Position numbers and translations under genes: made by a program. Under the pieces are notes generated by a model. The model searched no databases. It was not told the DNA's origin and saw only the letters and a program-made list of their open reading frames with translations. A stretch of 64,000 bases of DNA from a candidate division WOR-3 bacterium (GTDB lineage Bacteria > Hydrothermota > Tepidihabitantia > Tepidihabitantales > Tepidihabitantaceae): the NCBI GenBank assembly GCA_026418295.1, contig JAOABP010000002.1:26244-90243 (forward strand), written 5' to 3'. Each line of letters opens with the position of its first letter. Position 1 is the first letter of the stretch. Positions 1,767 to 32,170 of the stretch are shown here, piece by piece.

Positions 1767-3497
1767 ATGGACAGTCATTTATCCCATACTCCAGGCCAGC
1801 GCGGCTACAGCCGGAAACTCGCAGAAGAGTTTTGCGCATTATCCAGACGTATTCTCCGCGAGGCGAATTCAGGTGTTCCCCGGGACGAATTTACGAGAAT
1901 GGTATTGAGTGAGTTTATTGAATTTTCCGGTTGCGATGAGGTGGAAATGAGGGTAAATGAAGGTTCAAGGTATTATCGCGGGGTCTTGAAAACCGGACCG
2001 GATGGAAAATTCCGATTCAGTCTGAAAACAAATGACTGTCCGCAGGCGCAGGAGGCATTTTCAGGGGACGAGTCAGAAGACCAGAACGTCACTAGGATGC
2101 TTCAGAAACTGGCTAGGGGCGATTACGACTCGAAGCAGCCGGGATTCACTGCTAATGGAGCTTTTCTGATTGCCAATTGTGCCACTCCTGTGATGTTTGA
2201 GGGGCGCGCGATAACAGTTCGGAGTGTGTATCAGTCGCTGGCGATTTTGCCGTTTACTATTGCGGATAACAGTCACGGACTCATTATTCTTAAGAGCCGT
2301 CAGCCCGGTTTTTTCCGGGAGCTGGAGGTGGAATTTTATCAGGGTGTAGCTCAGAGTTTAGGGGTAGCATTTGCCGACCGACGCGCACAGGCGGCTTTAC
2401 GGGAGCGGGTAAAGGAACTTACCTGCTTATATGAGCTGGATCAGGTTTTGAGCCGGGAGGAAAAGGATATCGGTGAAATCATGAAGGCGGCGGCAGAAAA
2501 ACTGCCCCCTGCATGGCTGCATTCGGATATCGCCTCTGCCTGTATTGAACTGGATGGCATAAGGTATGAGACTTCCGGCTTTAAGAATGCTGTTCACCGG
2601 CAGTCGGCAGTAATCAGGGTACACGGGGTTCCCCGTGGCAAGGTTGAAGTTGTTTACCGCGAACCCCGGCCGGTGCTGGATGAAGGTCCTTTTCTGAAGG
2701 AGGAGCGAAATCTGATTGAAGCGGTAGCCCGGGAGATCGGGTTGTTTATTGAGCGATGGGAAGCCCGAGAAGAAAAAGCCCGGTTGGAACTGCAGCTGCG
2801 TCACGCTGACCGGCTGGCCACTATTGGCCAGCTGGCAGCAGGGATTGCCCATGAGTTGAACGAACCGTTAGCCAGTATTCTCGGCTTTTCCCAGCTGCTG
2901 CAGAAGATGCCGGGTATGCCCGAGCCGGCATTGAGAGATTTGGATCGAATTGTCAAGGCAGCACTTCATGCTCGGGGGGTTATCAACAAACTGATGTTTT
3001 TTGCCCGACCGCGACCGCCACAGCAGATGTCCATTTCAGTGAATCAGCTTATTACCGAGAGTATGTATTTTGTTCAGAGTCGCTGCGCAAAAGCCGGGGT
3101 GCAGGTTGTATATGATCTTGCGCCTGATTTGCCGGAAATTCAGGCAGATCCGACACAATTGCAGCAGGTAGTAATCAATCTGGCAGTTAATGCCGTTCAG
3201 GCAATGCCTGGGGGCGGGACGCTGACTCTGGCGACAAGAAAAAAAGACGGGTTTATTGCCCTTATTGTCCAGGATACGGGTGTTGGCATGAGTGAAGAGG
3301 TTAAGGCTCAGATTTTTTTGCCCTTTTTTACGACCAAGCCGGTTGGTGAAGGGACCGGGCTCGGGTTGTCGGTTGTCCACGGAATCGTTACCGCTCATGG
3401 CGGTCGAATCAATGTTGAGTCTGCTCCCGGGAAAGGCAGCCGGTTTGAGGTGCTTTTACCTTTGCTTACACCAAAAGAACTTCAGGAGAGGAGATGA
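1767..3497 (+). CDS. cytoplasmic sensor histidine kinase (GAF-like sensor domains + HisKA + HATPase_c)
   Basis: H-box HELNEPLASILGFSQLL. ATPase N/G boxes (NLAVNAVQAM, QDTGVGM, GTGLGLSVVHGIV). No obvious TM segments. 4-nt ATGA overlap with the downstream regulator. Confidence 0.88.
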   Translation: MDSHLSHTPGQRGYSRKLAEEFCALSRRILREANSGVPRDEFTRMVLSEFIEFSGCDEVEMRVNEGSRYYRGVLKTGPDGKFRFSLKTNDCPQAQEAFSGDESEDQNVTRMLQKLARGDYDSKQPGFTANGAFLIANCATPVMFEGRAITVRSVYQSLAILPFTIADNSHGLIILKSRQPGFFRELEVEFYQGVAQSLGVAFADRRAQAALRERVKELTCLYELDQVLSREEKDIGEIMKAAAEKLPPAWLHSDIASACIELDGIRYETSGFKNAVHRQSAVIRVHGVPRGKVEVVYREPRPVLDEGPFLKEERNLIEAVAREIGLFIERWEAREEKARLELQLRHADRLATIGQLAAGIAHELNEPLASILGFSQLLQKMPGMPEPALRDLDRIVKAALHARGVINKLMFFARPRPPQQMSISVNQLITESMYFVQSRCAKAGVQVVYDLAPDLPEIQADPTQLQQVVINLAVNAVQAMPGGGTLTLATRKKDGFIALIVQDTGVGMSEEVKAQIFLPFFTTKPVGEGTGLGLSVVHGIVTAHGGRINVESAPGKGSRFEVLLPLLTPKELQERR

Positions 3498-4837
3498 GAA
3501 GGGATTACGAGGCGGTAATTCTGGTTGTTGATGATAATGCCGAGACGCTCGAAGTGCTGGAGCGTAATCTCAATGCCGCTGGTTATCAGGTGTGGACCGC
3601 CCAGAATGTCACTGATGCCGTAAAACTGCTGCAAAACGAGCACTTTGATGTTGTAATCACTGATATGAAAATGCCAGGAGCGTCGGGATTGGATCTGATA
3701 AAATATGTGCGCGAAAATTTGAACGACACTGAGGTGATGGTAATTACCGGTTATGCAACAGTGGAAAGTGCAGTGCAGGCAGTAAAGATCGGTGCTGAAG
3801 AGTATTTACCAAAGCCATTTACAGATGAGGAACTGTTGAATGCGGTGAAAAGAGTTCTGGAAAAACTCCGGATGCGGCGTGCCGCCGATGCCAGTAAGAT
3901 TACAATTCAGAAGGTTTATCCAGGACTGCTGGGTGAATCACCAGCGATGAAAAAAGTATTCAATGCGATTGAACGGGCAGCGCAGGTATCAGCCACAGTG
4001 CTGATTACCGGAGAGAGCGGTACCGGTAAGGAGCTGGTGGCACGGGCAATCCACTATGCCAGCAAAAGGGCATCAGCACCTTTTGTGCCGGTTAACTGCG
4101 GTGGAATTCCTGAGAGTCTTCTGGAGAGTGAACTGTTCGGCTATGTTAAAGGGGCTTTTACCGGCGCCACTGAGACCCGGGCGGGATTTTTCCAGACTGC
4201 AGAAGGTGGGTCAATATTTCTTGATGAAATCAGTGAGACCAGTCCTTCGATGCAGGTGAAACTGCTGCGGGTTCTTCAGGATAAAGAGGTCAGAATGCTG
4301 GGGGATTCCCGCGTTTACAGAGTGGATGTGAGGGTAATGGCAGCTACTAACAAGGATTTACTGGCATTGGTTCAAAAGGGGGCATTCCGCGAGGATCTGT
4401 TCTTTCGTTTGAATGTGCTGAATATTTCTGTTCCGCCACTCCGGGAAAGAGGGGAAGACATCTTTCTGCTTGCACGCTACTTTCTGGAGAAATTTGCCCG
4501 GGAGATGGGGCGTTCAGTCCCTCATTTCACAGATCAGGCGCTTGACGCATTCCGCCGGTATGAGTGGCCCGGTAATGTCCGGGAGCTGGAGAATCTGATA
4601 CAGCGACTACTGGTGATGGTGGATGGCGATAAGATTGATATTACTGACCTGCCGTCGCATATGCGGTTTTCAGTTGCCGCCAAGATTGATCTGACCCGGA
4701 CCTTAAAGGAAGTAGAGAGTGAATATATCCTGCAGGTGCTCAAGAGCGTTGGTGGAAATTTAACCCGCGCCGCCTCGATTCTTGGGATCGATCGTAAAAC
4801 CCTGAGAAATAAATTAAAGGAAAGCAAACCCGAATAA
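3494..4837 (+). CDS. sigma-54-dependent response regulator (NtrC/AtoC family enhancer-binding protein)
   Basis: Receiver domain (VVDDN…DVVITDMKMPG). AAA+ sigma-54 interaction domain with Walker A GESGTGKE, GAFTGA motif (KGAFTGATE) and FREDLFFRLNV. C-terminal Fis-type HTH. Confidence 0.93.
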   Translation: MRRDYEAVILVVDDNAETLEVLERNLNAAGYQVWTAQNVTDAVKLLQNEHFDVVITDMKMPGASGLDLIKYVRENLNDTEVMVITGYATVESAVQAVKIGAEEYLPKPFTDEELLNAVKRVLEKLRMRRAADASKITIQKVYPGLLGESPAMKKVFNAIERAAQVSATVLITGESGTGKELVARAIHYASKRASAPFVPVNCGGIPESLLESELFGYVKGAFTGATETRAGFFQTAEGGSIFLDEISETSPSMQVKLLRVLQDKEVRMLGDSRVYRVDVRVMAATNKDLLALVQKGAFREDLFFRLNVLNISVPPLRERGEDIFLLARYFLEKFAREMGRSVPHFTDQALDAFRRYEWPGNVRELENLIQRLLVMVDGDKIDITDLPSHMRFSVAAKIDLTRTLKEVESEYILQVLKSVGGNLTRAASILGIDRKTLRNKLKESKPE

Positions 4838-4993
4838 AACTCAGTGGGGATAATTTACCCGCCGGGAATTTTTGCCCCAAGGCTAAATTAAATCACTGCC
4901 CGGTAAAGCCATTCTAAATAAAACATCATTTTGTATCAAGCTGATAAATAACAACTTGCATGATCGATAAATTTCAGAATTTTACAGGTATGC

Positions 4994-5010
4994 CTGGCAT
5001 ACTTCGTGCA
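4994..5010 (+). promoter_or_regulatory. sigma-54 (-24/-12) promoter, TGGCAT-N7-TGCA
   Basis: cTGGCATacttcgTGCAt: GG at 4996-4997 and GC at 5008-5009, with canonical spacing relative to consensus TGGCAC-N5-TTGCW. Sits about 65 nt upstream of RBS AAAGGAGGA and the ATG at 5076. Follows an AT-rich stretch downstream of the EBP gene. Confidence 0.6.
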
Positions 5011-5075
5011 TAATACAAAAGTGCAAGTATGAGCAAACCGATGGAGAAAGGAAAACTTTAAAAAGGAGGAGCAAT

Positions 5076-5423
5076 ATGGCAGTTTCCACAAAGATTGCCA
5101 AAAAGGCAGCAAAAAAAAGCCAGCTAACGGCGCCAAAGTTCAGGAGAGCCGCAGAGGAGATGCAGGGACTGTGTATTACCTGCAATCATGCGGCGGGATG
5201 TGTCTTTCGCAAGCGCAATAAAAAACCGGTTCTGTTCTGTGAGGAGTTTGATTCCAGTGTGCCGACAGTTGAGGAGCAAATTGTGGAAGAATCATATCCT
5301 ACGGTAGAAGAGATGCGCGAATGGGATGAATTCAAAGGGCTATGTGTGAACTGTGAAAATCGTAACGATTGTATGATTCGCAACCGGGATATCGGGGTCT
5401 GGCATTGTGAGGAGTACCGGTAA
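5076..5423 (+). CDS. small Cys-rich protein with duplicated C-x2-C-x4-C-x10-11-C-EE motif and Lys-rich N-terminus (possibly DUF1540-like)
   Basis: Strong SD (AAAGGAGGA) 8 nt upstream of the ATG. Two repeats: GLCITCNHAAGCVFRKRNKKPVLFCEEF and GLCVNCENRNDCMIRNRDIGVWHCEEY. Lies 9 nt upstream of the GDH gene, so probably co-transcribed. Confidence 0.6.
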   Translation: MAVSTKIAKKAAKKSQLTAPKFRRAAEEMQGLCITCNHAAGCVFRKRNKKPVLFCEEFDSSVPTVEEQIVEESYPTVEEMREWDEFKGLCVNCENRNDCMIRNRDIGVWHCEEYR

Positions 5424-5432
5424 GGAGGACTT

Positions 5433-6755
5433 ATGGCAATAAATACCAGAAGTTCAGTCCGGATAAAACCGACATATAAGCAGACTGCTCCGGAGAAGAA
5501 ACGTCGCAGTGTATATGAAGATGTTGTAAGTCAGTTCAATCGTGCGGCAGATATCATGAATCTTGATTCCGGAGTTCGGAAAATACTGGGTACAACTATG
5601 AACGAAGTGGTCGTCCATTTTCCCGTGAAGATGGATGACGGGCGGATTGAAGTTTTCACCGGGTACCGGGTTCAGCACAACAACGCCCTTGGTCCGTTCA
5701 AGGGCGGATTGAGATACCATCCGGCGGTGGATATCGATGAGGTGCGGGCGCTGGCAACCTGGATGACTTGGAAGTCAGCAATTGTCAACATTCCATTCGG
5801 TGGCGCAAAAGGGGGAATCCAGCTGGACCCGACAAATTATTCTGTTGCCGAACTGGAACGGATTACCCGGCGATTCACATATGCGCTAGGCAATACGATT
5901 GGGCCTGATTACGACATACCTGCACCAGATGTCAACACCAATCCTCAAATCATGGCGTGGATTCTTGATACCTATCAGTCGATGATGCCCGCTTTTGAGC
6001 GTCACCGCTGTCTGGGGGTAGTTACTGGTAAGCCGATTGAATCCGGTGGCAGTGTCGGCCGGGACAAAGCGACGGGTCAGGGTGTGGTTTATCTGATTCA
6101 TGAGTGGGCAAAGGATCACAACTTTGACCTCAGCAAGGCAACCTACATCGTTCAGGGGTTTGGCAATGTTGGGTCCTGGTCAGCCCGGTTGATGAAGCCT
6201 CTGGGGGCAAAGTTGATTGCGGTTGAGGATGTTACCGGTGCGATCGCCGATCCGGAGGGAATTGATCCGGAAGATTTAACCCGTTATGTGCTGGAAAACC
6301 GCGGGGTCAAGGGATATCCCAAGGCAAAGCCGATATCTCATATTGAGTTTCTCCGCACGCGGGCTGATATCTTCATTCCTGCAGCTTTGGAGAATCAGAT
6401 TACGGCGGAAACTGCACCACTGCTCAATGTTCGTCTAGTTGCGGAAGGTGCCAACGGACCGACTGATCCGGAGGGGGATGCTATTCTCAATCAGCGGGGT
6501 ATTGATGTGCTTCCCGATATCCTCTGTAACTCCGGTGGTGTGATTGTCAGTTACTTTGAGTGGTTGCAGAATAAGCGGAGCGAATTCTGGGATCTTCAGG
6601 AGGTTGACTGCAAGCTGTACAAGAAGATTGTGGGCGGTTATCAGCGGGTCAAGGAGGCGGTGAGCAAGTACCGCGTTAACTGGCGGACAGCAGCGTATAT
6701 CGTTGCTCTGGCACGACTGGAGAAGGTGTACAAGGAAAGGGGTATTTTCCCGTAA
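5433..6755 (+). CDS. gdh: glutamate dehydrogenase, short (about 420-440 aa) Glu/Leu/Phe/Val dehydrogenase-family type
   Basis: GPFKGGLRYHP, PFGGAKGG, GNVGSW Rossmann, VAEGANGP motifs. N-terminal roughly 25-aa basic extension. Confidence 0.9.
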   Translation: MAINTRSSVRIKPTYKQTAPEKKRRSVYEDVVSQFNRAADIMNLDSGVRKILGTTMNEVVVHFPVKMDDGRIEVFTGYRVQHNNALGPFKGGLRYHPAVDIDEVRALATWMTWKSAIVNIPFGGAKGGIQLDPTNYSVAELERITRRFTYALGNTIGPDYDIPAPDVNTNPQIMAWILDTYQSMMPAFERHRCLGVVTGKPIESGGSVGRDKATGQGVVYLIHEWAKDHNFDLSKATYIVQGFGNVGSWSARLMKPLGAKLIAVEDVTGAIADPEGIDPEDLTRYVLENRGVKGYPKAKPISHIEFLRTRADIFIPAALENQITAETAPLLNVRLVAEGANGPTDPEGDAILNQRGIDVLPDILCNSGGVIVSYFEWLQNKRSEFWDLQEVDCKLYKKIVGGYQRVKEAVSKYRVNWRTAAYIVALARLEKVYKERGIFP

Positions 6756-6859: not shown

Positions 6860-7399
6860 GTGCGGTGTTTGTGCCGGTTCGGACGTGCAGTTTTCCTTCT
6901 GATTCTGCTCAGCTGCGCCTCGCTTTACACGACTCAGCCCCGTTACCGCCGGTTCCGACAGACACCGCGTCTGAAACCGGCAGTTCCTTCCCAGCCAACA
7001 CCAGCCAGACATCCGATGGATGCCTACCGGGGCAGGCTTTCCTGGCCCGTGACCGGAACGGTAATTTCCGGATTCGGACTGCAGGTAGACCCGAAATACG
7101 GCACCAAGGTGAAAAATTCCGGGATTGACATCAGCTGTGCGAAGGGCAGTCCGGTCCGGGCGGTCTGGGAAGGTACGGTCTCCTATGCGGATGTGTTCAT
7201 GGGGCAGGGGCTGATGTTGATTCTGGAACATGGCGGCGGTTATTACTCAGTTTACAGCCGGCTGAGCGAGTTCCGGGTCCGGGCAGGCGAAAAGGTGAAG
7301 ACCGGAGCGGTGCTGGGTTTAAGCGGTGAGCTGCTGCATTTTGAATTGCGGATTGGCGGGAAGGCGGTTGACCCGCTGGAATGGCTGGAAAAGAGGTAA
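6860..7399 (+). CDS. M23 family metallopeptidase (peptidoglycan DD-endopeptidase-like) with N-terminal signal/lipoprotein-like segment
   Basis: GTG start. Hydrophobic N-terminus. M23 signature GIDISCAKGSPVRAV…GYYSVYSRL…GAVLGLSGE…LHFELR. Confidence 0.85.
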   Translation: MRCLCRFGRAVFLLILLSCASLYTTQPRYRRFRQTPRLKPAVPSQPTPARHPMDAYRGRLSWPVTGTVISGFGLQVDPKYGTKVKNSGIDISCAKGSPVRAVWEGTVSYADVFMGQGLMLILEHGGGYYSVYSRLSEFRVRAGEKVKTGAVLGLSGELLHFELRIGGKAVDPLEWLEKR

Positions 7400-8395: not shown

Positions 8396-11300
8396 TTACC
8401 GGTTCAGCACCGTCTTGACCTTGACTGAGGTTTCCGGAGTTGTGAGCCGGATGAAGTAGATACCGCTGGCAACTCTGCTGCCGTTGTCATCAGTGCCATT
8501 CCAGCTGGCGGTATAGGTGCCCGCCTTCATTCTGCCGTTGACCAGAGTTCGCACAATTCTGCCGCTGGCATCAAATACCCTGAGCTCGGCGCTGCCGTCC
8601 TGAGGAATCTGGTAACGGATTACCGTTGTGCGTCTGAACAGACTGGGAGCAACCGCAAGAATTCTGCCATCCTTGAGCAGGGTTACGCCCAAATCTTCAG
8701 CTATGCCGGTGGGATTGTCGGATGAGAATTTGATCGCATGGCCCGGAACCCAGGGTGAGGCACCGCGGTGATAAGCACCGTCAAACAGCATCTGGATGTA
8801 TTTCGTCTTGGTGTGATCCTGAATTCCGACCGTTGCCGACCTGCCGGCGCGGTTGGCGGTCAGATACTGAATGACAAACTTGGAGTTGCCATCTTCAGCC
8901 GCATAAGTGGTATCATAGAGGATGATTTCAAATTTTTCCCACTCGGAGCTGCTGAAATAGTGGACCGAATCCCATTCAATGATGAACCGGTGGTTGGCGG
9001 CGTCGTGATAATACCAGACGCTGTCACCGTAAGGTGGATAGAGGTCGTCCCAGTTGGCAGCGATCAGCGGTGGCATGTCGGTGTTCGGCAGGGCGGTGTT
9101 GGAATAGTTGGTGGCGGTGGTATAACCCGGTGCAATCCAGCCGTTGGAGCAGATTGAAATCTGGTTATAGGACTGGCCGTAGAAGATGAAGGGACCGAAT
9201 GCGGGTGGCAGACTGATCTGCACGGTCTGGTCATCAGTGAGCGACAGTCTCGTGCCGATGCCGTAGATTTCCACCCATTCAAAGGTCGGATGTTCAGGAT
9301 AAAGGATGTCCACCTCATCGTAAGCCCAGTAGAGTGGCGGTTCGGAGTTGTCCGGAACCGGGTCAACCTGCCGGATTTCGCCGACGATGATTGTGAATAC
9401 GGCGGTGCTGGCATAGCCGTTGTCTGCCGAGATGTAAAGTGTGCAGGGGATCGGGGTTTCGGGCAGGATTGCGCTGGAGGCGTAGACGGTGAAGTGGTCG
9501 GTGCGGTTGGTGGCGTTTTCGCCTGCGGGGATATTGCCGTAGACCGCAGTAGAGTCGGTGACGCTCAAGCGGGAGTCACCCGAGCGCAGAACCGCCCGGA
9601 CATTGTAGGCGTTGCCCAGTCCGGAGTTGCTGAGCGTTATTTCCAGATCCGCGGTTTCGCTCGGGTCCAGTCGGCCGTTGGGCTGGGAGCCCATTGAATC
9701 CTTGACCACATGGTTGACAAAGACGATGCTCGGTGCGCCAACATACAGTGTGAACAGCGATATCCAGGTGGAGTCCAGCGCATCCTTGCAGACCAGTGAG
9801 CAGTTGATCGGATAGCGGTTGGGCAGACCCGAGGCAACGCTCATGCCGAATCCCTGAGCGTTGAATGCGGAGTCATTGCCGGCAATGTTACCGAAGGTCT
9901 TGACCGAATCGGTGACGGTGACACCAGCGGTTGAGGTGCGCAGTCGGGCGGTAACACTGTTAGCGGTCAGACTGCCGTAATTCTTGACCCACATCGGAAT
10001 CCGGAATGATTCGCCCGGGTTGATGATGCTGTCGCCATTACCACCCGGCGGTGCGTCGTTGATGTAGTGGCGGAGATAGGAGACATATCTGCCGGAGGAC
10101 ATTACAACGATGGAATCAAGATAGGGTATATTATTGGCACCGCTGACTGCGAGCTTGAGAAAGCCCGGAGTCAGACAGGAGACGAGCAGGGTTACCTGTC
10201 CGGAGGCGTTGGTCCAGCCGCGGACAAATGTTTCACCCGGTTTCTGGAGTACAACCATCGCCGATTCCACCGGAGCAAAGCCCGGGGTCTGGACGGTAAT
10301 CGTGACCGGAATGTTGTTGCCGATGTTGATGGCACCGGGTTTTGAGACCACCGGCACAAACGGCCGGGCGCGCCAGATCGGTGTTGCCGGCTCGCCGAAC
10401 AGGTTGCGCTCCATAATCTCCATCCGGTATTTCTGGGAATCAAGAATTACCGGCACCCAGTAGTTTCTGCCATAGGAGATCATTTCGCCCTGATAAATCT
10501 TGCGGGCGGTGCGGAATCCCAGAAAGCCGTAGCCGATCGCATAGTTCAGCTTCTCCGCAACATTCACCCAGCCGGACTCGTAGTTCATCATGACACCGAT
10601 GAAGCCGTTGGGTGCGTGGTTGAACATGTTTTCGGCGATGCAGTCGCCATTCGTTGACCCCAGATCCCACTGGCCCACATTACACGAGACCGCGGTGATG
10701 CAGTTGAGCCGGTTGGTATTGGTGAGGTTAATCATCATCTGGCTGGTAACGCTTCCGTTCAGGTCATAAAGGTCCGGTGCGCCGTGAGCAATCACCGAGT
10801 TGAAGGTGTAGCCGGAGTTCAGCGAGTCACAGTAACGCTGGGGTGTGGGCTGGATCTGACCGTTGCCGGAGTAATACATCTTCAGGTCAAACCAGGGCGG
10901 GGTGGGCGAGGCGTTGGCGATCGAGTCGTTGTAATTGTCCGAGAAGGTGACACCGTTGGGCAGAAGGATTTTATTCCACCAGCCGCCGGTTGTATCCGGT
11001 GCGGTCTCGTAGCGGATGATTTTGCTCCGGACATTGGCGATCTCACTGAACTGATTCAGGGTCATCATGCCGACATGGACATCGGCATAGCCGTCAACCG
11101 AGTCGGCAAGCTCGCCGAAGATGTTGTTGTTGTTGCGGTCCCAGGTGCCATCCAGATCGGAGAAATACATATCGGAGAAGAAGTCATAGCCATAGGCGCG
11201 GGCAACCCGGTAGTAGTTTGCCGGATAGTCAGGCCGGGCGATGAAGACGAAGATTGTGCCCCAGGTGGTGTCCGCATCCTTGATGAAGTTGCGCATCTTT

Positions 11301-12118
11301 TCCGCATTGTCCCTACCCGGATAGGTGGCGCAGATGGATTCCAGGATGACAATCTTTGAGCGCCAGCCGAGCCGGGTGCGCCAGTCCCGCAGCCAGACCA
11401 GCGAATCGGCAAACTGCTGGCTGGTCATGATCACATGCTCGTAATTGCCGGGCTCAAGGAACCGGGAACCGAAACTGCCGGTTCGCTTCGGCGGGGCAAA
11501 ACGGTCAACGTCCTCAGGATTGAGCACCAGGTGCTTGACCTGATCGCCGAACATCTTCAACTGCATTTCGGTGTATGCCGGGGTGTGGTGTCTGCCGGTT
11601 TCATAACTGAGCCGGACGGTGATTTCCGAGACGAGATACAGTCTGCCTTCAACCGGATTGTAGCGGACCGGATAGATGAGAAAACTGGCAATCCGGTAAC
11701 CGGACATACTGCCGACATGGGCGAAGCGGGCAGGATTTTCAGGCCAGACTTTGTTCTGGCTGTAGACCGCCGGGTCCGGAGGCACGAACGGTTTCGGCTC
11801 ATAGTTCTTCTTCCAGGGAATCGGATGCTGAGCGGGCAGGACCTTGTAAGTGCCGGGAAGTGCCTCTTCCTTGAAAGATACGATTTCCAGACCGGTGACT
11901 TCGGCGTCTGCCGGAATTGCCACCTGATAGGGCAGGCAGGGCAGGTCCGGTTCGCCCAGATTGCTGATATGGGCGGACATGCCGAAGTCCACGGTGGTAT
12001 AGCCGTCCTGACTGCCGAGCTGGAGCGCAGTTGCCGGATACTCAAAGCTCCGGGTGAAGCTGGCGCCCAGGGCAATGGTCAGGCAGGCAGAGAGCGTCAG
12101 AAATACAAGACGCTTCAC
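8396..12118 (-). CDS. secreted peptidase C25 (gingipain-like) family protein with T9SS C-terminal sorting domain
   Basis: GTG start (VKRLVFLTLSACL… signal peptide) 5 nt after SD AAAGGAGG. The longer ORF-track start at 12193 is probably not used. C25-like catalytic region (…VIAHGAPDLY…ITAVSCNVGQWD…). C-terminal LRVFDASGRIVRTLVNG…GTYTASWNGTDDNGSRVASGIYFIRL…KVKTVLNR matches the T9SS type-A CTD pattern. Confidence 0.8.
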   Translation of the reverse strand: MKRLVFLTLSACLTIALGASFTRSFEYPATALQLGSQDGYTTVDFGMSAHISNLGEPDLPCLPYQVAIPADAEVTGLEIVSFKEEALPGTYKVLPAQHPIPWKKNYEPKPFVPPDPAVYSQNKVWPENPARFAHVGSMSGYRIASFLIYPVRYNPVEGRLYLVSEITVRLSYETGRHHTPAYTEMQLKMFGDQVKHLVLNPEDVDRFAPPKRTGSFGSRFLEPGNYEHVIMTSQQFADSLVWLRDWRTRLGWRSKIVILESICATYPGRDNAEKMRNFIKDADTTWGTIFVFIARPDYPANYYRVARAYGYDFFSDMYFSDLDGTWDRNNNNIFGELADSVDGYADVHVGMMTLNQFSEIANVRSKIIRYETAPDTTGGWWNKILLPNGVTFSDNYNDSIANASPTPPWFDLKMYYSGNGQIQPTPQRYCDSLNSGYTFNSVIAHGAPDLYDLNGSVTSQMMINLTNTNRLNCITAVSCNVGQWDLGSTNGDCIAENMFNHAPNGFIGVMMNYESGWVNVAEKLNYAIGYGFLGFRTARKIYQGEMISYGRNYWVPVILDSQKYRMEIMERNLFGEPATPIWRARPFVPVVSKPGAINIGNNIPVTITVQTPGFAPVESAMVVLQKPGETFVRGWTNASGQVTLLVSCLTPGFLKLAVSGANNIPYLDSIVVMSSGRYVSYLRHYINDAPPGGNGDSIINPGESFRIPMWVKNYGSLTANSVTARLRTSTAGVTVTDSVKTFGNIAGNDSAFNAQGFGMSVASGLPNRYPINCSLVCKDALDSTWISLFTLYVGAPSIVFVNHVVKDSMGSQPNGRLDPSETADLEITLSNSGLGNAYNVRAVLRSGDSRLSVTDSTAVYGNIPAGENATNRTDHFTVYASSAILPETPIPCTLYISADNGYASTAVFTIIVGEIRQVDPVPDNSEPPLYWAYDEVDILYPEHPTFEWVEIYGIGTRLSLTDDQTVQISLPPAFGPFIFYGQSYNQISICSNGWIAPGYTTATNYSNTALPNTDMPPLIAANWDDLYPPYGDSVWYYHDAANHRFIIEWDSVHYFSSSEWEKFEIILYDTTYAAEDGNSKFVIQYLTANRAGRSATVGIQDHTKTKYIQMLFDGAYHRGASPWVPGHAIKFSSDNPTGIAEDLGVTLLKDGRILAVAPSLFRRTTVIRYQIPQDGSAELRVFDASGRIVRTLVNGRMKAGTYTASWNGTDDNGSRVASGIYFIRLTTPETSVKVKTVLNR

Positions 12119-12240
12119 TTGACCTCCTTTTTGCTCTGACAGCGTTTTGTTCTGTGTCATAAAGCAGGCCCGAGCCTGGTCAAACTGACACAATGTAAAA
12201 TTATCACCCGGCAGGCACCGATGTCAACAATTAATTTCAT

Positions 12241-29005: not shown

Positions 29006-29782
29006 GTGGTACATTTTCTTCTGTTAGTCGGTATCAACGCATTTGATTTTCTCCTGCTCAGCGGAACTGCCAGCGGTATTGGTGCGGGCACCGGGGTAGC
29101 AGACTGGCAGCAGGCACTGATATACAATCCGGCACAGACGATGCCTTCTGAGAGGGCAGGACTGAGTATAGTCTATGCCTGTCCTTACGGAGTGCCGGGG
29201 TTGAACTGTGTGCGGGTGGGTGCCGGATTCGCTATCAACCGTATAAATCTGAATGTCGGGATGCAGTTTCTGGGAATTGATGGGTATGGAGAGTATGACC
29301 TGGGGGTGGGGCTCGGGCTGGCGATAACAGGAGAAGTGATCACCGGATTTGCGGTCCACGGACTGCTGGTGAGGATGCCGACTGCAGGATGGTTGTTTGT
29401 GCCCGCTTTTGACGGGGGGATTTCATGGTCAATATCCAAGTTCCGTCTGGGAACGGCAGTTCAGAATTTCAACCGGCCCAGGTTTGATAATGGCGATGAG
29501 GTGCAACCCCGGCTGCGCGCCGGGGTTGCCTGGGAGCCGGTGGAACCGCTGCTGCTGGCGGTAGATTTTGGAAAACAGGGTGAAAGCGAGCGGTTACTGG
29601 CGGGGATTGAAATCCGTATTTTTCCCGAATTAAAGGTGCGAGCCGGTATGGAAACCGCACCCTGGTGTATCCGTGCCGGGTTCGGGCTGAAAGTCAAGCG
29701 TTTTGGGGTGGATTACGGGTATCACTACCTGTCGGAGCTGGGGGGAACGCATATTATCGGTGTTAACTACACGTGGAATTAA
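29006..29782 (+). CDS. hypothetical protein, putative outer-membrane beta-barrel
   Basis: Alternating hydrophobic Gly/aromatic-rich strands. C-terminal …IIGVNYTWN. No recognisable family. Confidence 0.4.
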   Translation: MVHFLLLVGINAFDFLLLSGTASGIGAGTGVADWQQALIYNPAQTMPSERAGLSIVYACPYGVPGLNCVRVGAGFAINRINLNVGMQFLGIDGYGEYDLGVGLGLAITGEVITGFAVHGLLVRMPTAGWLFVPAFDGGISWSISKFRLGTAVQNFNRPRFDNGDEVQPRLRAGVAWEPVEPLLLAVDFGKQGESERLLAGIEIRIFPELKVRAGMETAPWCIRAGFGLKVKRFGVDYGYHYLSELGGTHIIGVNYTWN

Positions 29783-31332
29783 TTCTGCTCCTTGTGTGCT
29801 GGGGAATTGTTTCTCAGGAACTGATTCCGGACTGGCCTGTTACTCCAGATGATGATGAAATCTATGAGCTGGTTGAAGACAGTATCGCCGGTGTTGAAAA
29901 ACTGCCGGGCGCGGGGTTGCATAATTACCGTGCAGTCTGGCGTCTGAAGACGGAATCACCTGCGGAAGTACCGTTGTCACTGGGCAGTTTTCTGCGGCTG
30001 CAACTGCAGCGGGAAAATTGTGCCGGGGTTGTTGTCATGGAAAAGGATCCCGGTGAAGCCGGCTGGGCCGATTTCTGGGGTGCTGGCTTGACATTCAGAC
30101 ATAGCCGGTGGCGTTTTACTGCCGGTGATTATATTCTGCACTTTGGCCGGGGACTGATTCTGGCTGGACCCGGGGTTCGTTCCGGTTTCGCTCAGCTGGA
30201 GACGCTCCGTAATGATGTCCTTGCCCGGTCAGCCCAGGAGAATCGTAATTGGCGCGGGCTCAGAGTTGATTACCACACTGGAGGACGGGTTTTATTTACA
30301 TTTGCCGGCAGTTACAGCCGGCGCGATGCTCAACTGAATCCGGATGGCACGGTTGCTAAACTGTTGTTTTCCGGTTATCACCGGGATTCGGCGGCTGTTG
30401 CCGCAAAGGGGAGTATCGGTCAGTTGTTAACCGGGATAATTCTGCAGCTGAAATTGAGTGATGTCTGTCGGGCAGGAGTGGCGGTGAACAGCACCCGTTA
30501 TGACCGGATGCTGGTATCAGAGGATAGTTTTTATTCATTTTCCGGACAGAATCTGGCCGCAGGCAGTGTCTTTTGTGCGCTCGGCAGCTCCCGGCGCGGC
30601 GGCGAGATTGAGTTTGCCCGTTCCATTCCCGGCGGATTTGCCGGTGCCGTCCGGGTCAATCTCTCCGAGCAGGGCTGGAATGTGGTGCTTAACGGCCTTT
30701 TAACCGGTGAGCGGTTTTTCTCACCGGCAGGACGCAGCCCCGTACTGACAAACCGGAAGGCGAGAGGTCAGCTTACCGGCCGCCTGGGCTGGAAAAACAG
30801 AGGTCTGACTCTGCAGGTGGGCGGGAATACCTATTATGACTATCTGATGGATTCGATTCCTGCCCGGCTTGAGATTGCTGCGGGATACGAGTTCGGGAGA
30901 TTTGGATTTGATATTAAAACCGCGAGAAAGTTCCGTCAGGAACAGGAACGCTTCCGTGAGACCCGCATTGAGCTGAGGTTGGAGATGCGTCAACTTGGGG
31001 TGTCTGTATACGGTGGTGATGCATATCATGATAATTCAGTTTCCTCCGCCCGCGTCGCCGGTATCAACCTGAAATTGAAGCTGAACCCGGTGGATCTGCG
31101 ACTTGCCGGTGCAATTGGTTCAGTTCGTGGCACTGGAATTGCATTTGGAGTTCCTGATCCCGGTGTGACATACACAGAGGCAAGTTATAATTTTCGTTCC
31201 TCTGCAACGAGGCTTGCACTGGCGGCGGGAATAAAGCTGGGCAGAACGGTGAGGCTGGCAATCAAGTTGGGAATGACACATTACCGATGCTGGGATCAGG
31301 ATTGGGCAATGCAGCTGGAATTACTGAATTAG
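29773..31332 (+). CDS. hypothetical protein, putative outer-membrane beta-barrel/secreted
   Basis: Overlaps the previous CDS by 10 nt. Long Gly/Arg/aromatic-rich amphipathic pattern. No recognisable family. Confidence 0.4.
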   Translation: MELILLLVCWGIVSQELIPDWPVTPDDDEIYELVEDSIAGVEKLPGAGLHNYRAVWRLKTESPAEVPLSLGSFLRLQLQRENCAGVVVMEKDPGEAGWADFWGAGLTFRHSRWRFTAGDYILHFGRGLILAGPGVRSGFAQLETLRNDVLARSAQENRNWRGLRVDYHTGGRVLFTFAGSYSRRDAQLNPDGTVAKLLFSGYHRDSAAVAAKGSIGQLLTGIILQLKLSDVCRAGVAVNSTRYDRMLVSEDSFYSFSGQNLAAGSVFCALGSSRRGGEIEFARSIPGGFAGAVRVNLSEQGWNVVLNGLLTGERFFSPAGRSPVLTNRKARGQLTGRLGWKNRGLTLQVGGNTYYDYLMDSIPARLEIAAGYEFGRFGFDIKTARKFRQEQERFRETRIELRLEMRQLGVSVYGGDAYHDNSVSSARVAGINLKLKLNPVDLRLAGAIGSVRGTGIAFGVPDPGVTYTEASYNFRSSATRLALAAGIKLGRTVRLAIKLGMTHYRCWDQDWAMQLELLN

Positions 31333-31333
31333 G

Positions 31334-32170
31334 ATGCTGGATTATCATATTCATCCCGATTTTTCCCCTGATGCACAGGGCAGTATCGAGCAGTTCTGCA
31401 GGCGAGCGGTAGCGATCGGGATGCAGGAAATCTGTTTTACCACTCATTATGAGCCGGACCCTGTAAGGGCAGGGATCGAGCGGGTCATTGTTCAGGGTAA
31501 TCCGGTGGCGGTTGATTCTGACTGGCCCGAACGCTACCTGGAGGAGATTGAACGGTGTCGCCGGCGGTTTCCAGAGTTGACAATTGTCTCGGGCGTAGAG
31601 GTTGGCTATGAACTGGGACTGGAGGGGAAAATTGCCAATTTTCTCAGCCGCTACCGGTTTGATTTTGTCCTGGGGGCAGTACACTGTCTCGATCATGTTG
31701 CGATTACATCGCGGAAGGAACTTGATGATTTCCAGAGTCATTTGAAACCCCTGGGTGCCGGATATCTTGCCCGGCGCTATTTTGAATATGTCCGGGCAGC
31801 TGCCGGTTCCCGATTGTTTGACTGCCTGGCACATCTTGATATCTGGAGAAAATATATCAGTTCCGGGATCGGCGCTGAATTTGAACCTGCGATTCAACCG
31901 TGGATCACTCCGATGCTGGAAACGATTGTCCGGAGCGGTGTGGGGCTGGAAATTAACACCTCAGCATTGCGGCGGGGAGATCGTGAACCTTATCCGGCAG
32001 CGGCGATTGTGTTGCAAGCAGTAAAGCTGGGAGTCCGGGTATTTACCATTGGTTCGGACGCGCACCGTCCGCAGGAGCTGGGCGAGGGCATAGACTGCGC
32101 TTATCAGCTGCTGAAACGTTTCGGAATGAAGCCAGCACGGTTTCGTGACCGGCGGCCAATTTGTGGTTAG
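31334..32170 (+). CDS. histidinol-phosphatase family PHP-domain protein
   Basis: MLDYHIHPDFSPDA…CFTTHYE…AHLD…GSDAHRP metal-binding His/Asp pattern of the PHP (HisJ/HisK) family. Confidence 0.75.
   Translation: MLDYHIHPDFSPDAQGSIEQFCRRAVAIGMQEICFTTHYEPDPVRAGIERVIVQGNPVAVDSDWPERYLEEIERCRRRFPELTIVSGVEVGYELGLEGKIANFLSRYRFDFVLGAVHCLDHVAITSRKELDDFQSHLKPLGAGYLARRYFEYVRAAAGSRLFDCLAHLDIWRKYISSGIGAEFEPAIQPWITPMLETIVRSGVGLEINTSALRRGDREPYPAAAIVLQAVKLGVRVFTIGSDAHRPQELGEGIDCAYQLLKRFGMKPARFRDRRPICG

Follow-up and report, generated by a model that had tools for sequence, protein, structure and literature searches.

Architecture of the locus

The gene analysed here lies at positions 5076-5423 of a stretch of 64,000 nucleotides (nt) from a candidate division WOR-3 bacterium (GenBank assembly GCA_026418295.1, contig JAOABP010000002.1, positions 26,244 to 90,243 of the forward strand), called the window below, and encodes a protein of 115 amino acids (aa) with two similar groups of four cysteines. 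It is found between the genes of a two-component system and a gene for glutamate dehydrogenase (GDH), all of them in the same orientation, and a first reading of the letters alone, referred to here as the original prediction, had proposed for it a regulatory or sensing role at the head of a sigma-54 transcript. The features of the locus are as follows.

1767..3497, + strand: sensor histidine kinase, 576 aa, cytoplasmic, with a weak GAF match, an unannotated sensor domain, HisKA and HATPase_c (Pfam)
3494..4837, + strand: NtrC-type sigma-54 response regulator, 447 aa, with REC, AAA+ Sigma54_activat and HTH_8 domains (Pfam)
4995..5010, + strand: predicted sigma-54 promoter TGGCATACTTCGTGCA, with GG at -24 and GC at -12, beginning 81 nt upstream of the ATG
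5064..5069, + strand: Shine-Dalgarno sequence AGGAGG of the small gene, 6 nt before the ATG, with GGAGG kept in orthologues
5076..5423, + strand: two-module Cys4 protein, 115 aa, ATG start; the coordinates include the stop codon (5421-5423)
5076..5165, + strand: variable basic N-terminal tail, residues 1-30, specific to the WOR-3 clade
5166..5249, + strand: module 1, residues 31-58, GLC-x2-C-x5-C-x12-C-EEF
5250..5333, + strand: variable acidic, Pro-rich linker between the modules, residues 59-86
5334..5417, + strand: module 2, residues 87-114, KGLC-x-NC-x-NR-x2-C-x7-GVWHCEEY
5433..6755, + strand: GDH of the Thermotoga/Thermus/Pyrococcus type, 440 aa (Pfam domains; PDB 1B26/2TMG, E value 1e-135)

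The open reading frame (ORF) described by the original prediction, with its two cysteine half-sites, is present and has homologues. Its comparison with an orthologue of 78% identity gave proportions of non-synonymous and synonymous differences (pN and pS) of 0.106 and 0.54, that is, a dN/dS of about 0.11, so the small ORF is a protein-coding gene under purifying selection. The cysteine spacing, previously miscounted as x4 and x10-11, is C33-x2-C36-x5-C42-x12-C55 before EEF in module 1 and C90-x2-C93-x5-C99-x11-C111 before EEY in module 2, and these two spacings, (5,12) and (5,11), dominate among 261 relatives of the protein. The profiles of the two modules are homologous by hhalign (probability 98.8%, E value 1e-16), which shows that the internal duplication already suspected is real.

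All eight cysteines are conserved in 98-100% of the 261 relatives. Module 2 is the most conserved part of the protein, with G88, W109 and C111 at 100%, Y114 at 98%, E113 at 96% and H110 at 95%, and its consensus, K-G-L-C-x-N-C-x-x-R-x-x-C-x7-G-[VI]-W-H-C-E-E-Y, ends at most one residue from the C-terminus, while the N-terminal tail and the linker between the modules are variable. The tail, which had been compared to nucleic-acid-binding tails, is certainly basic in this protein (eight K/R versus two D/E in residues 1-32), but nucleic-acid binding by this tail is not supported as a defining feature, and its Lys/Ala-rich character belongs to the WOR-3 clade and not to the family, since the net charge of the tail is +3 or more in 41% of the relatives and zero or less in 42%. 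Six relatives (P0029, P0036, P0041, P0068, P0096 and P0108) carry three Cys4 modules with long acidic linkers between them. The module can thus be repeated like a bead on a string, and its occurrence in two or three copies on variable linkers would suit a docking or sensing unit.

A large family without annotation

An initial search with the small protein returned 25 clusters of homologues, all from metagenome-assembled genomes (MAGs) or metagenomes, and the named ones were from candidate division WOR-3. The wider phylogenetic survey that the original prediction had advised uncovered a broad family, since a profile search of 1.84 billion representatives yielded 1,875 proteins at E<=1e-3 (1,257 of them at E<=1e-10), each standing for a cluster at 50% identity and nearly all with a length of 90-130 aa. 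A word-indexed search found 1,654 proteins of the family, all of them devoid of Pfam domains and named "hypothetical protein" in their sources, except for one clearly mis-assigned label. In GTDB species representatives, with one genome per species, 544 loci encode a relative, in taxa as diverse as WOR-3, Zixibacteria, Planctomycetota/Phycisphaerae, Ignavibacteria, Desulfobacterota/Syntrophales, Verrucomicrobiota, Aminicenantes, Latescibacterota, Omnitrophota, Fibrobacterota and KSB1. The 80 loci listed of these 544 are all from MAGs, and no cultured carrier of the gene appeared among the homologues listed. Full-text literature searches found no description of the family or of its gene cassette. 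The small protein is the type of a large, phylogenetically broad and unannotated family of uncultured anaerobes, outside any described one and tied to a conserved regulon of glutamate metabolism.

Several known families were considered for the small protein, which has no Pfam match at E<=1, so the Pfam check proposed at the outset offered no family. Neither NCBIfam nor the PDB gave a significant sequence match with the single protein, and a profile of 121 sequences found nothing significant in the PDB, structures of WhiB-like (Wbl) proteins included. When these 121 members were scanned individually against Pfam, 25 of the 48 matching families were listed. The assignment to DUF1540 (PF07561) suggested by the original prediction, with which the protein has in common a small repeated Cys-rich motif of no assigned function, was abandoned, as the small protein is unmatched at E<=1 and this family is absent from the 25 of 48 listed for the relatives.

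The most common sub-threshold Pfam match is WhiB (PF02467), found in 27 of the 121 members with a best E value of 0.012 and below the gathering score of 23.6 bits (P0237 scores 15.1 bits). Alignment with 13 Wbl sequences from actinobacterial plasmids gave an hhalign probability of 18% (E value 1.3e-3) for module 2, placed on the Wbl core CxxCx5C...GVWGG, and of 0.8% for module 1. Both groups of proteins are small (about 80-120 aa in Wbl) and share a C-x2-C-x5-C triad followed some 7-11 residues later by G[VI]W. A possible counterpart of the Wbl turn G[VI]WGG reads GG[VI]WHC in module 2 (W in 100% and H in 95% of the relatives) and is missing from module 1. However, the Wbl pattern C-X(14-22)-C-X2-C-X5-C, verified on the 13 sequences, does not describe the C-x2-C-x5-C-x11/12-C found here: the additional cysteine of Wbl proteins lies in an N-terminal helix, some 28 residues on the N-terminal side, whereas the fourth cysteine of our modules is C-terminal to it and follows the GVW. 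Moreover, the module here is duplicated or triplicated, the N-terminal helix and the C-terminal basic region of Wbl proteins are absent, and no relative whose source names a taxon is actinobacterial. Wbl proteins bind a [4Fe-4S] cluster and, through their iron-sulfur (Fe-S) region, region 4 of the principal, sigma-70-type factor, which contrasts with the sigma-54 and enzyme context of the present family. Membership in WhiB was consequently rejected on the sub-threshold scores and the misplaced fourth cysteine, and the resemblance is limited to the level of motifs. FNR and endonuclease III/MutY bind their clusters through a C-x2-C-x5-C triad as well, which may serve as a lead towards a [4Fe-4S] site, and not as a demonstration of one.

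The family has in common with 2x[4Fe-4S] ferredoxins, high-potential iron-sulfur proteins (HiPIP) and the "FeS" family PF04060 a small size and four-cysteine sites, which in those proteins hold a cluster. It differs from all of them in the cysteine spacings (CxxCxxCxxxCP in ferredoxins, C-x2-C-x16-C-x13-C in HiPIP and C-x2-C-x4-C-x16-C in PF04060), and none of them is among the 25 of 48 Pfam families listed. The ferredoxin assignment was discarded, given that the CxxCxxCxxxCP motif is lacking and that no Fer4 family is found in that list, where the only Fe-S-related entry is one weak NADH_4Fe-4S match (E value 0.0092). Zinc ribbons and treble clefs were discarded as well: there is a single CxxC per module and the Pfam matches, such as those to Zn_ribbon_16, a putative zinc ribbon (19 of 121 members, best E value 0.005), are sub-threshold. 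The AlphaFold2 prediction that had been suggested produced no confident fold, with confidence scores (pLDDT) of 57 from 25 sequences and 60 from 121 and almost no secondary structure, and a Foldseek search of the model against the PDB gave no match. A model of such low confidence is compatible with a fold that would form only around a metal centre, yet it is no evidence for one.

A predicted sigma-54 promoter and its two-component system

Taken within the window alone, the match to the sigma-54 consensus upstream of the small gene is not significant (21 matches with up to two mismatches versus 23.7 expected), and the support for this promoter comes from its conservation across loci. In 13 orthologous intergenic regions, otherwise unalignable, the invariant columns are confined to the GGxA at -24, the GC at -12 and the TG of the start codon, and the GGAGG of the Shine-Dalgarno sequence is largely conserved. 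The spacing between the -24 and -12 elements is canonical, and the cognate AAA+ activator (REC-Sigma54_activat-HTH_8) is encoded at 3494-4837. Sigma-54 matches were scored as at least 9 of 11 consensus positions, with GG and GC fixed. Among loci seeded with the small protein, 60 of 90 had such a match in the 500 nt upstream (background 0.045 per 500 nt), and among those seeded independently with the kinase, 41 of 47 had one upstream (background 0.035 per 450 nt). Here and below, each set of loci comprises the 80 with the best scores in its scan and is no random sample, and genes in related loci were called simply as ORFs. In the window, gdh begins 9 nt past the stop codon of the small ORF and has an AAGGAGG of its own at 5422-5428. 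No terminator-like site was found on the + strand between the two, and Rfam detected no known RNA element across the leader and the ORF. Judged from these signals, the small gene is predicted to be the promoter-proximal gene of a sigma-54 transcript that runs on into gdh, in agreement with the original prediction.

The conservation of the small gene beside gdh, a check advised at the outset, was borne out by the surveys of synteny. A homologue of the activator is encoded directly upstream, on the same strand, in 78 of the 82 loci with enough upstream sequence, which were drawn from 89 related loci plus the window. In most cases the gene before that of the activator codes for a kinase whose homology extends over the full length of the protein and takes in the sensor region (E values of 1e-110 to 1e-250). 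In 49 loci of the family this kinase is a near-full-length homologue (about residues 40-540 or more) with an invariant Cys220, and the shorter kinases, including those of loci labelled Planctomycetota or Phycisphaerae, are devoid of the first ~200 residues. Kinase residues ~200-345 form a conserved domain with one invariant cysteine that matches no Pfam family and carries the signature ERVKELTCLY...LPPAW.YP...RG.VEV.Y...EGPFL.EE. As an independent test, the sensor pattern ER[VI]KELTC led to at least 571 confirmed metagenome loci. In 49 loci kept in this kinase-seeded set the sequence goes on for 2.2 kb or more past the kinase, and in 43 of them the order is kinase, activator, Cys-module gene and enzyme.

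Five of the 49 loci (L106, L108, L109, L165 and L176) have neither the small gene nor GDH/NuoE downstream, and unrelated genes follow the activator in the four that were inspected (L106, L108, L165 and L176). Conversely, the small gene and NuoE operons occur together with no adjacent activator in L046, L049, L070 and L088, where sigma-54 matches of 8-10 out of 11 positions are kept. In these loci, the small gene is absent along with the enzyme and present where an adjacent activator is missing, which indicates that it travels with the enzyme operon. In one of them (L049), whose small gene and NuoE operon lacks the kinase-activator pair, a divergent gene of 134 aa (4865-5269, - strand) sits next to this operon, and the N-terminus of its product, MQISKKAEYSLHAM, resembles a Rrf2/IscR-type regulator by eye only.

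Enzymes of the operon and their fusions with the module

A census of 128 two-module genes and of what follows each of them indicates that the enzymes of the operon are of different kinds. GDH of the small hexameric type, in one or two copies, follows 43 of these genes (short contigs included), a large Bac_GDH-type enzyme of about 1,000 aa follows two, a set of four genes starting with a NuoE-like one follows about 71, and GDH and then that set follow four. The four-gene set begins with a NuoE-like subunit (283 aa) and continues with NuoF, either fused to a GltD-like domain (about 1,065 aa) or alone (616 aa). Third comes a protein of 225 aa with 2Fe-2S/4Fe-4S domains, and last one that carries the flavin mononucleotide (FMN) domain of glutamate synthase (380-550 aa). 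A distant member of the family precedes a NuoE-like gene and a cluster resembling that of sensory [FeFe]-hydrogenases. Going by these gene contents, the common denominator of the regulon is apparently the interconversion of glutamate and 2-oxoglutarate tied to NAD(P)H or Fe-S chemistry. Although nearest neighbours are mostly of the same type, the small proteins do not split into GDH- and NuoE-specific subfamilies: the groups are interleaved, and paralogues within a genome cluster together, such as the two in one operon of L065, each a near neighbour of the other, which suggests a function generic to both contexts.

The four-gene operon, exemplified by L053 (6284-12255) and L047 (6339-11412) and present in some 70 further loci, is reminiscent of a Bfu/NfnABC-type complex to which a glutamate-synthase module has been coupled. 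A survey of the Bfu family has no mention of glutamate (PMC9304861). The Pfam match of the FMN-domain protein covers part of the Glu_synthase FMN model only, and the NuoE-like subunit has a CxxC-rich C-terminal extension. A kinship of the Cys4 module with this conserved extension of about 130 aa was considered and rejected, the signal coming solely from a few sequences with a fused module.

The module is also found as a part of the enzymes themselves. In 11 diverged metagenome loci, none of which has a stand-alone small gene, GDH carries one copy of module 2 as an in-frame N-terminal fusion, with the consensus KGLCxxCx5CxxPKPExG[VI]WRCE[EHY][FY] and near-consensus sigma-54 promoters upstream. 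Four of these fusion genes are the following, and the remaining ones belong to L134, L139, L148, L152, L160, L161 and L163.

L127, 9603-11096: GDH with in-frame module 2
L151, 5979-7472: GDH with in-frame module 2
L104, 9885-11531: GDH with in-frame module 2
L174, 9726-11285: GDH with in-frame module 2

In the fusion GDHs, the place of module 1 is occupied by a Cys-free motif, EWKLLY. It precedes module 2 in L127, L151, L104, L160, L139, L134, L148 and L174, and in most of them it takes the form (S/T)K(E/D)WK(L/M)LY.QHGRPGLEE, that of L174 being shorter and keeping the EWKLLY core. On the side of the four-gene operons, it is the NuoE-like protein that carries a module in frame: L034 and L074 have module 1 at its N-terminus, and L052 and L065 have module 2 at its C-terminus. 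These fusions occur in diverged sequences from different samples, so they are not accidents of assembly. By the Rosetta-stone logic, in-frame fusions imply that the module acts together with the enzymes, and their recurrence in both GDH and the NuoE-like subunit argues for an enzyme-bound accessory or adaptor rather than for a free-standing DNA or RNA binder. A regulatory or sensing role, as originally proposed, is still plausible, although these fusions shift it towards an accessory or adaptor bound to the enzymes.

Possible roles of the Cys-repeat protein

The reading favoured here, tentatively and with a little less than even confidence, is that the Cys-repeat protein would be a metal-cluster accessory, adaptor or sensor subunit of glutamate enzymes, which may also report to the two-component system. 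The small protein would be a cytoplasmic metalloprotein made of two tandem homologous Cys4 modules, each of which probably binds one metal centre, with a [4Fe-4S]-type cluster as the first guess and zinc as the alternative. The adjacent kinase and NtrC-type activator would switch on an operon for a glutamate/2-oxoglutarate oxidoreductase, in this case GDH, onto which the C-terminal module would dock with a stoichiometry of roughly 1:1. The metal or redox state of the module would then modulate the enzyme and/or be read by the kinase-activator pair, in the manner of a "trigger enzyme". We infer metal binding, the identity of the metal, the docking of the module and its possible influence on regulation or feedback from sequence patterns and gene context. 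A known case with some parallels is that of Bacillus subtilis, where rocG is under the control of RocR/SigL and the GDH RocG acts as a trigger enzyme towards GltC. There too, a catabolic GDH is expressed from a sigma-54 promoter with a dedicated activator and is physically coupled to the transcriptional control of glutamate synthase, but no small Cys protein takes part, the activator is not a response regulator, and the organisms and partners are others.

Several points weigh against this interpretation. GDH requires no metal cofactor, and an action of the module on this enzyme is speculation. The small GDH, the large GDH and the NuoE-like subunit are unrelated or distant partners, which makes one common docking surface no easy assumption. 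The geometry of the metal sites and the docking surfaces would need a confident model, which the AlphaFold2 predictions described above do not give, and the feedback link to the two-component system is suggested by synteny alone. One of the 49 kinase-seeded loci (L167) has the kinase, the activator and, directly after it, a NuoE-like gene with no small gene, so the Cys-repeat protein is not strictly indispensable. Finally, each of the homologues found comes from a MAG or a metagenome and is labelled "hypothetical". In any case, the accessory or adaptor role is preferred because it covers at once the position of the gene at the head of a sigma-54 operon, the three types of enzymes, unrelated or distant and with only their substrate pair in common, and the fusions with them.

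An unlikely, though serious, alternative is that the first product of the operon would bind the kinase or the activator and tune the signalling, with no action on the enzymes, which would explain the headship of the operon and the variety of enzymes, but not the fusions. Precedents for such feedback are the pairs FixT-FixL, PspA-PspF and ZraP-ZraS, and the genes of PspA-PspF, ZraP-ZraSR and GlnK (glnK-amtB) are promoter-proximal accessory genes of sigma-54 operons whose products act back on regulators. Like pspA or zraP, the small gene is proximal to the promoter, beside the activator, and encodes a small non-enzymatic product, although it has no kinship in sequence or fold with PspA, ZraP or GlnK, which are not Cys-rich and, to our knowledge, have not been found fused to catalytic subunits. 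Consistent with this alternative, the kinase and the activator are the only constant protein neighbours of the gene, whereas the enzymes differ, and the small proteins do not co-diversify with the type of enzyme. FixT of Caulobacter crescentus, an Fe-S-binding single receiver domain that inhibits the FixL kinase by feedback, offers a conceptual precedent for a small, two-component-induced protein whose four-cysteine cluster site controls a kinase (PMC7078487). However, FixT has a receiver-domain fold, is not homologous and has no reported fusion with enzymes, and in the present case the feedback would be an extrapolation from gene order. This alternative leaves unexplained the single modules fused in frame to GDH and to the NuoE-like subunit, and the gene seems to follow the enzymes instead of the regulators: no small gene is adjacent to the four inspected kinase-activator pairs with unrelated downstream genes, and it accompanies NuoE in the four loci with no adjacent activator.

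Less probable still, the protein could be a dedicated low-potential electron carrier, a novel di-cluster ferredoxin-like partner of NuoEF (Bfu/Nfn-like) complexes of the glutamate synthase kind, for which a partner of the ferredoxin type is required. Its two Cys4 sites, the origin of all relatives in MAGs or metagenomes, the Fe-S-rich NuoE/NuoF-GltD/Fe-S/GltB-like operons that about half of the family precedes and the modules fused to the NuoE-like subunit are in line with this possibility. A pure subunit or electron carrier would explain the fusions and, in part, the headship of the operon, but it struggles with the variety of enzymes and with a GDH devoid of a redox cofactor. Nearly half of the family, including the protein of this window, precedes GDH only, an enzyme that passes hydride directly to NAD(P)+ and offers no site for an Fe-S partner, and module 2 is fused to GDH itself. 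Two or three modules on long variable linkers are, moreover, unlike a fixed electron wire, and neither the CxxCxxCxxxCP motif nor any canonical 4Fe-4S ferredoxin family among the 25 of 48 listed was found.

An improbable explanation is that of a structural zinc mini-subunit or assembly factor, whose Cys4-Zn knobs would stabilise or oligomerise the enzymes with no sensing, by analogy with aspartate transcarbamoylase, where the zinc domain of the regulatory chain contacts the catalytic chain. The presence of four cysteines within 23 residues, typical of zinc sites, the sub-threshold zinc-ribbon matches of 19 of the 121 members and the enzyme fusions fit with such a knob, but its use by unrelated enzymes and its tight tie to one sigma-54 regulon would be left unexplained, and a single CxxC with two lone cysteines is unlike the two-knuckle zinc ribbons. 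Lastly, a nucleic-acid-binding or Wbl-like transcription factor, which would contact DNA, RNA or a sigma factor with its Cys modules and basic tail to control gene expression directly, is very improbable: the tail is basic in the WOR-3 clade and the motifs resemble those of sigma-binding WhiB-like proteins, but most of the family has no such tail or one that is not basic, the similarity is sub-threshold (Pfam E value 0.012, hhalign 18%) with the fourth cysteine elsewhere and no Wbl structure in the PDB profile search, and the fusions are to enzymes and never to DNA-binding domains.

Returning to the accessory or adaptor role, a more specific version of it, which we consider unlikely but worth stating, is that these proteins would form a new class of small Fe-S signal-transduction proteins, redox-sensitive adaptors on GDH or on a Bfu/Nfn-like glutamate synthase that would connect a dedicated sigma-54 two-component system with the catalytic or redox state of the enzyme. 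If so, they would reveal an unrecognised circuit for the control of glutamate, nitrogen and redox in many, mostly uncultured, bacterial phyla. GDH and glutamate synthase are at the junction of carbon, nitrogen and redox metabolism, and the family bears on their control in uncultured lineages such as WOR-3, Zixibacteria, anaerobic Planctomycetota, Ignavibacteria, KSB1 and Desulfobacterota. The cassette, which brings together a kinase whose sensor domain is unannotated, an activator of sigma-54, the Cys-repeat protein and an enzyme, is defined across hundreds of species, and its Cys-repeat component, with no annotation anywhere, is now a protein of 90-115 aa with predicted metal binding and named candidate partners. 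The family could be used as a marker of this regulon in metagenomes, and may represent a new way of coupling enzymes and transcription through a metal cluster. If the module were only a structural zinc knob, its significance would be reduced to that of a new domain of unknown function (DUF).

Other features of the window

The surroundings of the cassette contain the following genes.

26-1309, + strand: second GDH, of the E. coli GdhA / NADP-specific type (PDB 4FCC, E value 7e-168), upstream of the kinase
1380-1735, + strand: tmRNA gene ssrA, with the tag peptide ANSSYALAA (Rfam RF00023, 181 bits), between the upstream GDH and the kinase
6860-7399, + strand: M23-peptidase-like gene, downstream neighbour
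8396-12193, - strand: gene of 1,265 aa, with Propeptide_C25, Peptidase_C25 (gingipain-like) and FlgD_ig in the annotation of its orthologue (L001, L003)

The 5' end of the GdhA-type gene is probably cut by the edge of the window, given that its orthologues have 453 aa, and in L002, L003, L004 and L010 the same gene is present some 3.8 kb ahead of the small gene. With this GDH upstream and the regulated one downstream, the cassette has a different GDH isozyme on each side. The sequence TGGCACTGGAATTGCA, a perfect match to the sigma-54 consensus, is found at 31128-31143 (+ strand), inside the ORF 29773-31332 and about 190 nt upstream of the ORF 31334-32170, and could be either an internal promoter or a chance match. 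The M23-peptidase-like gene and the gene of 1,265 aa are conserved in the WOR-3 loci and seemingly unrelated to the cassette.

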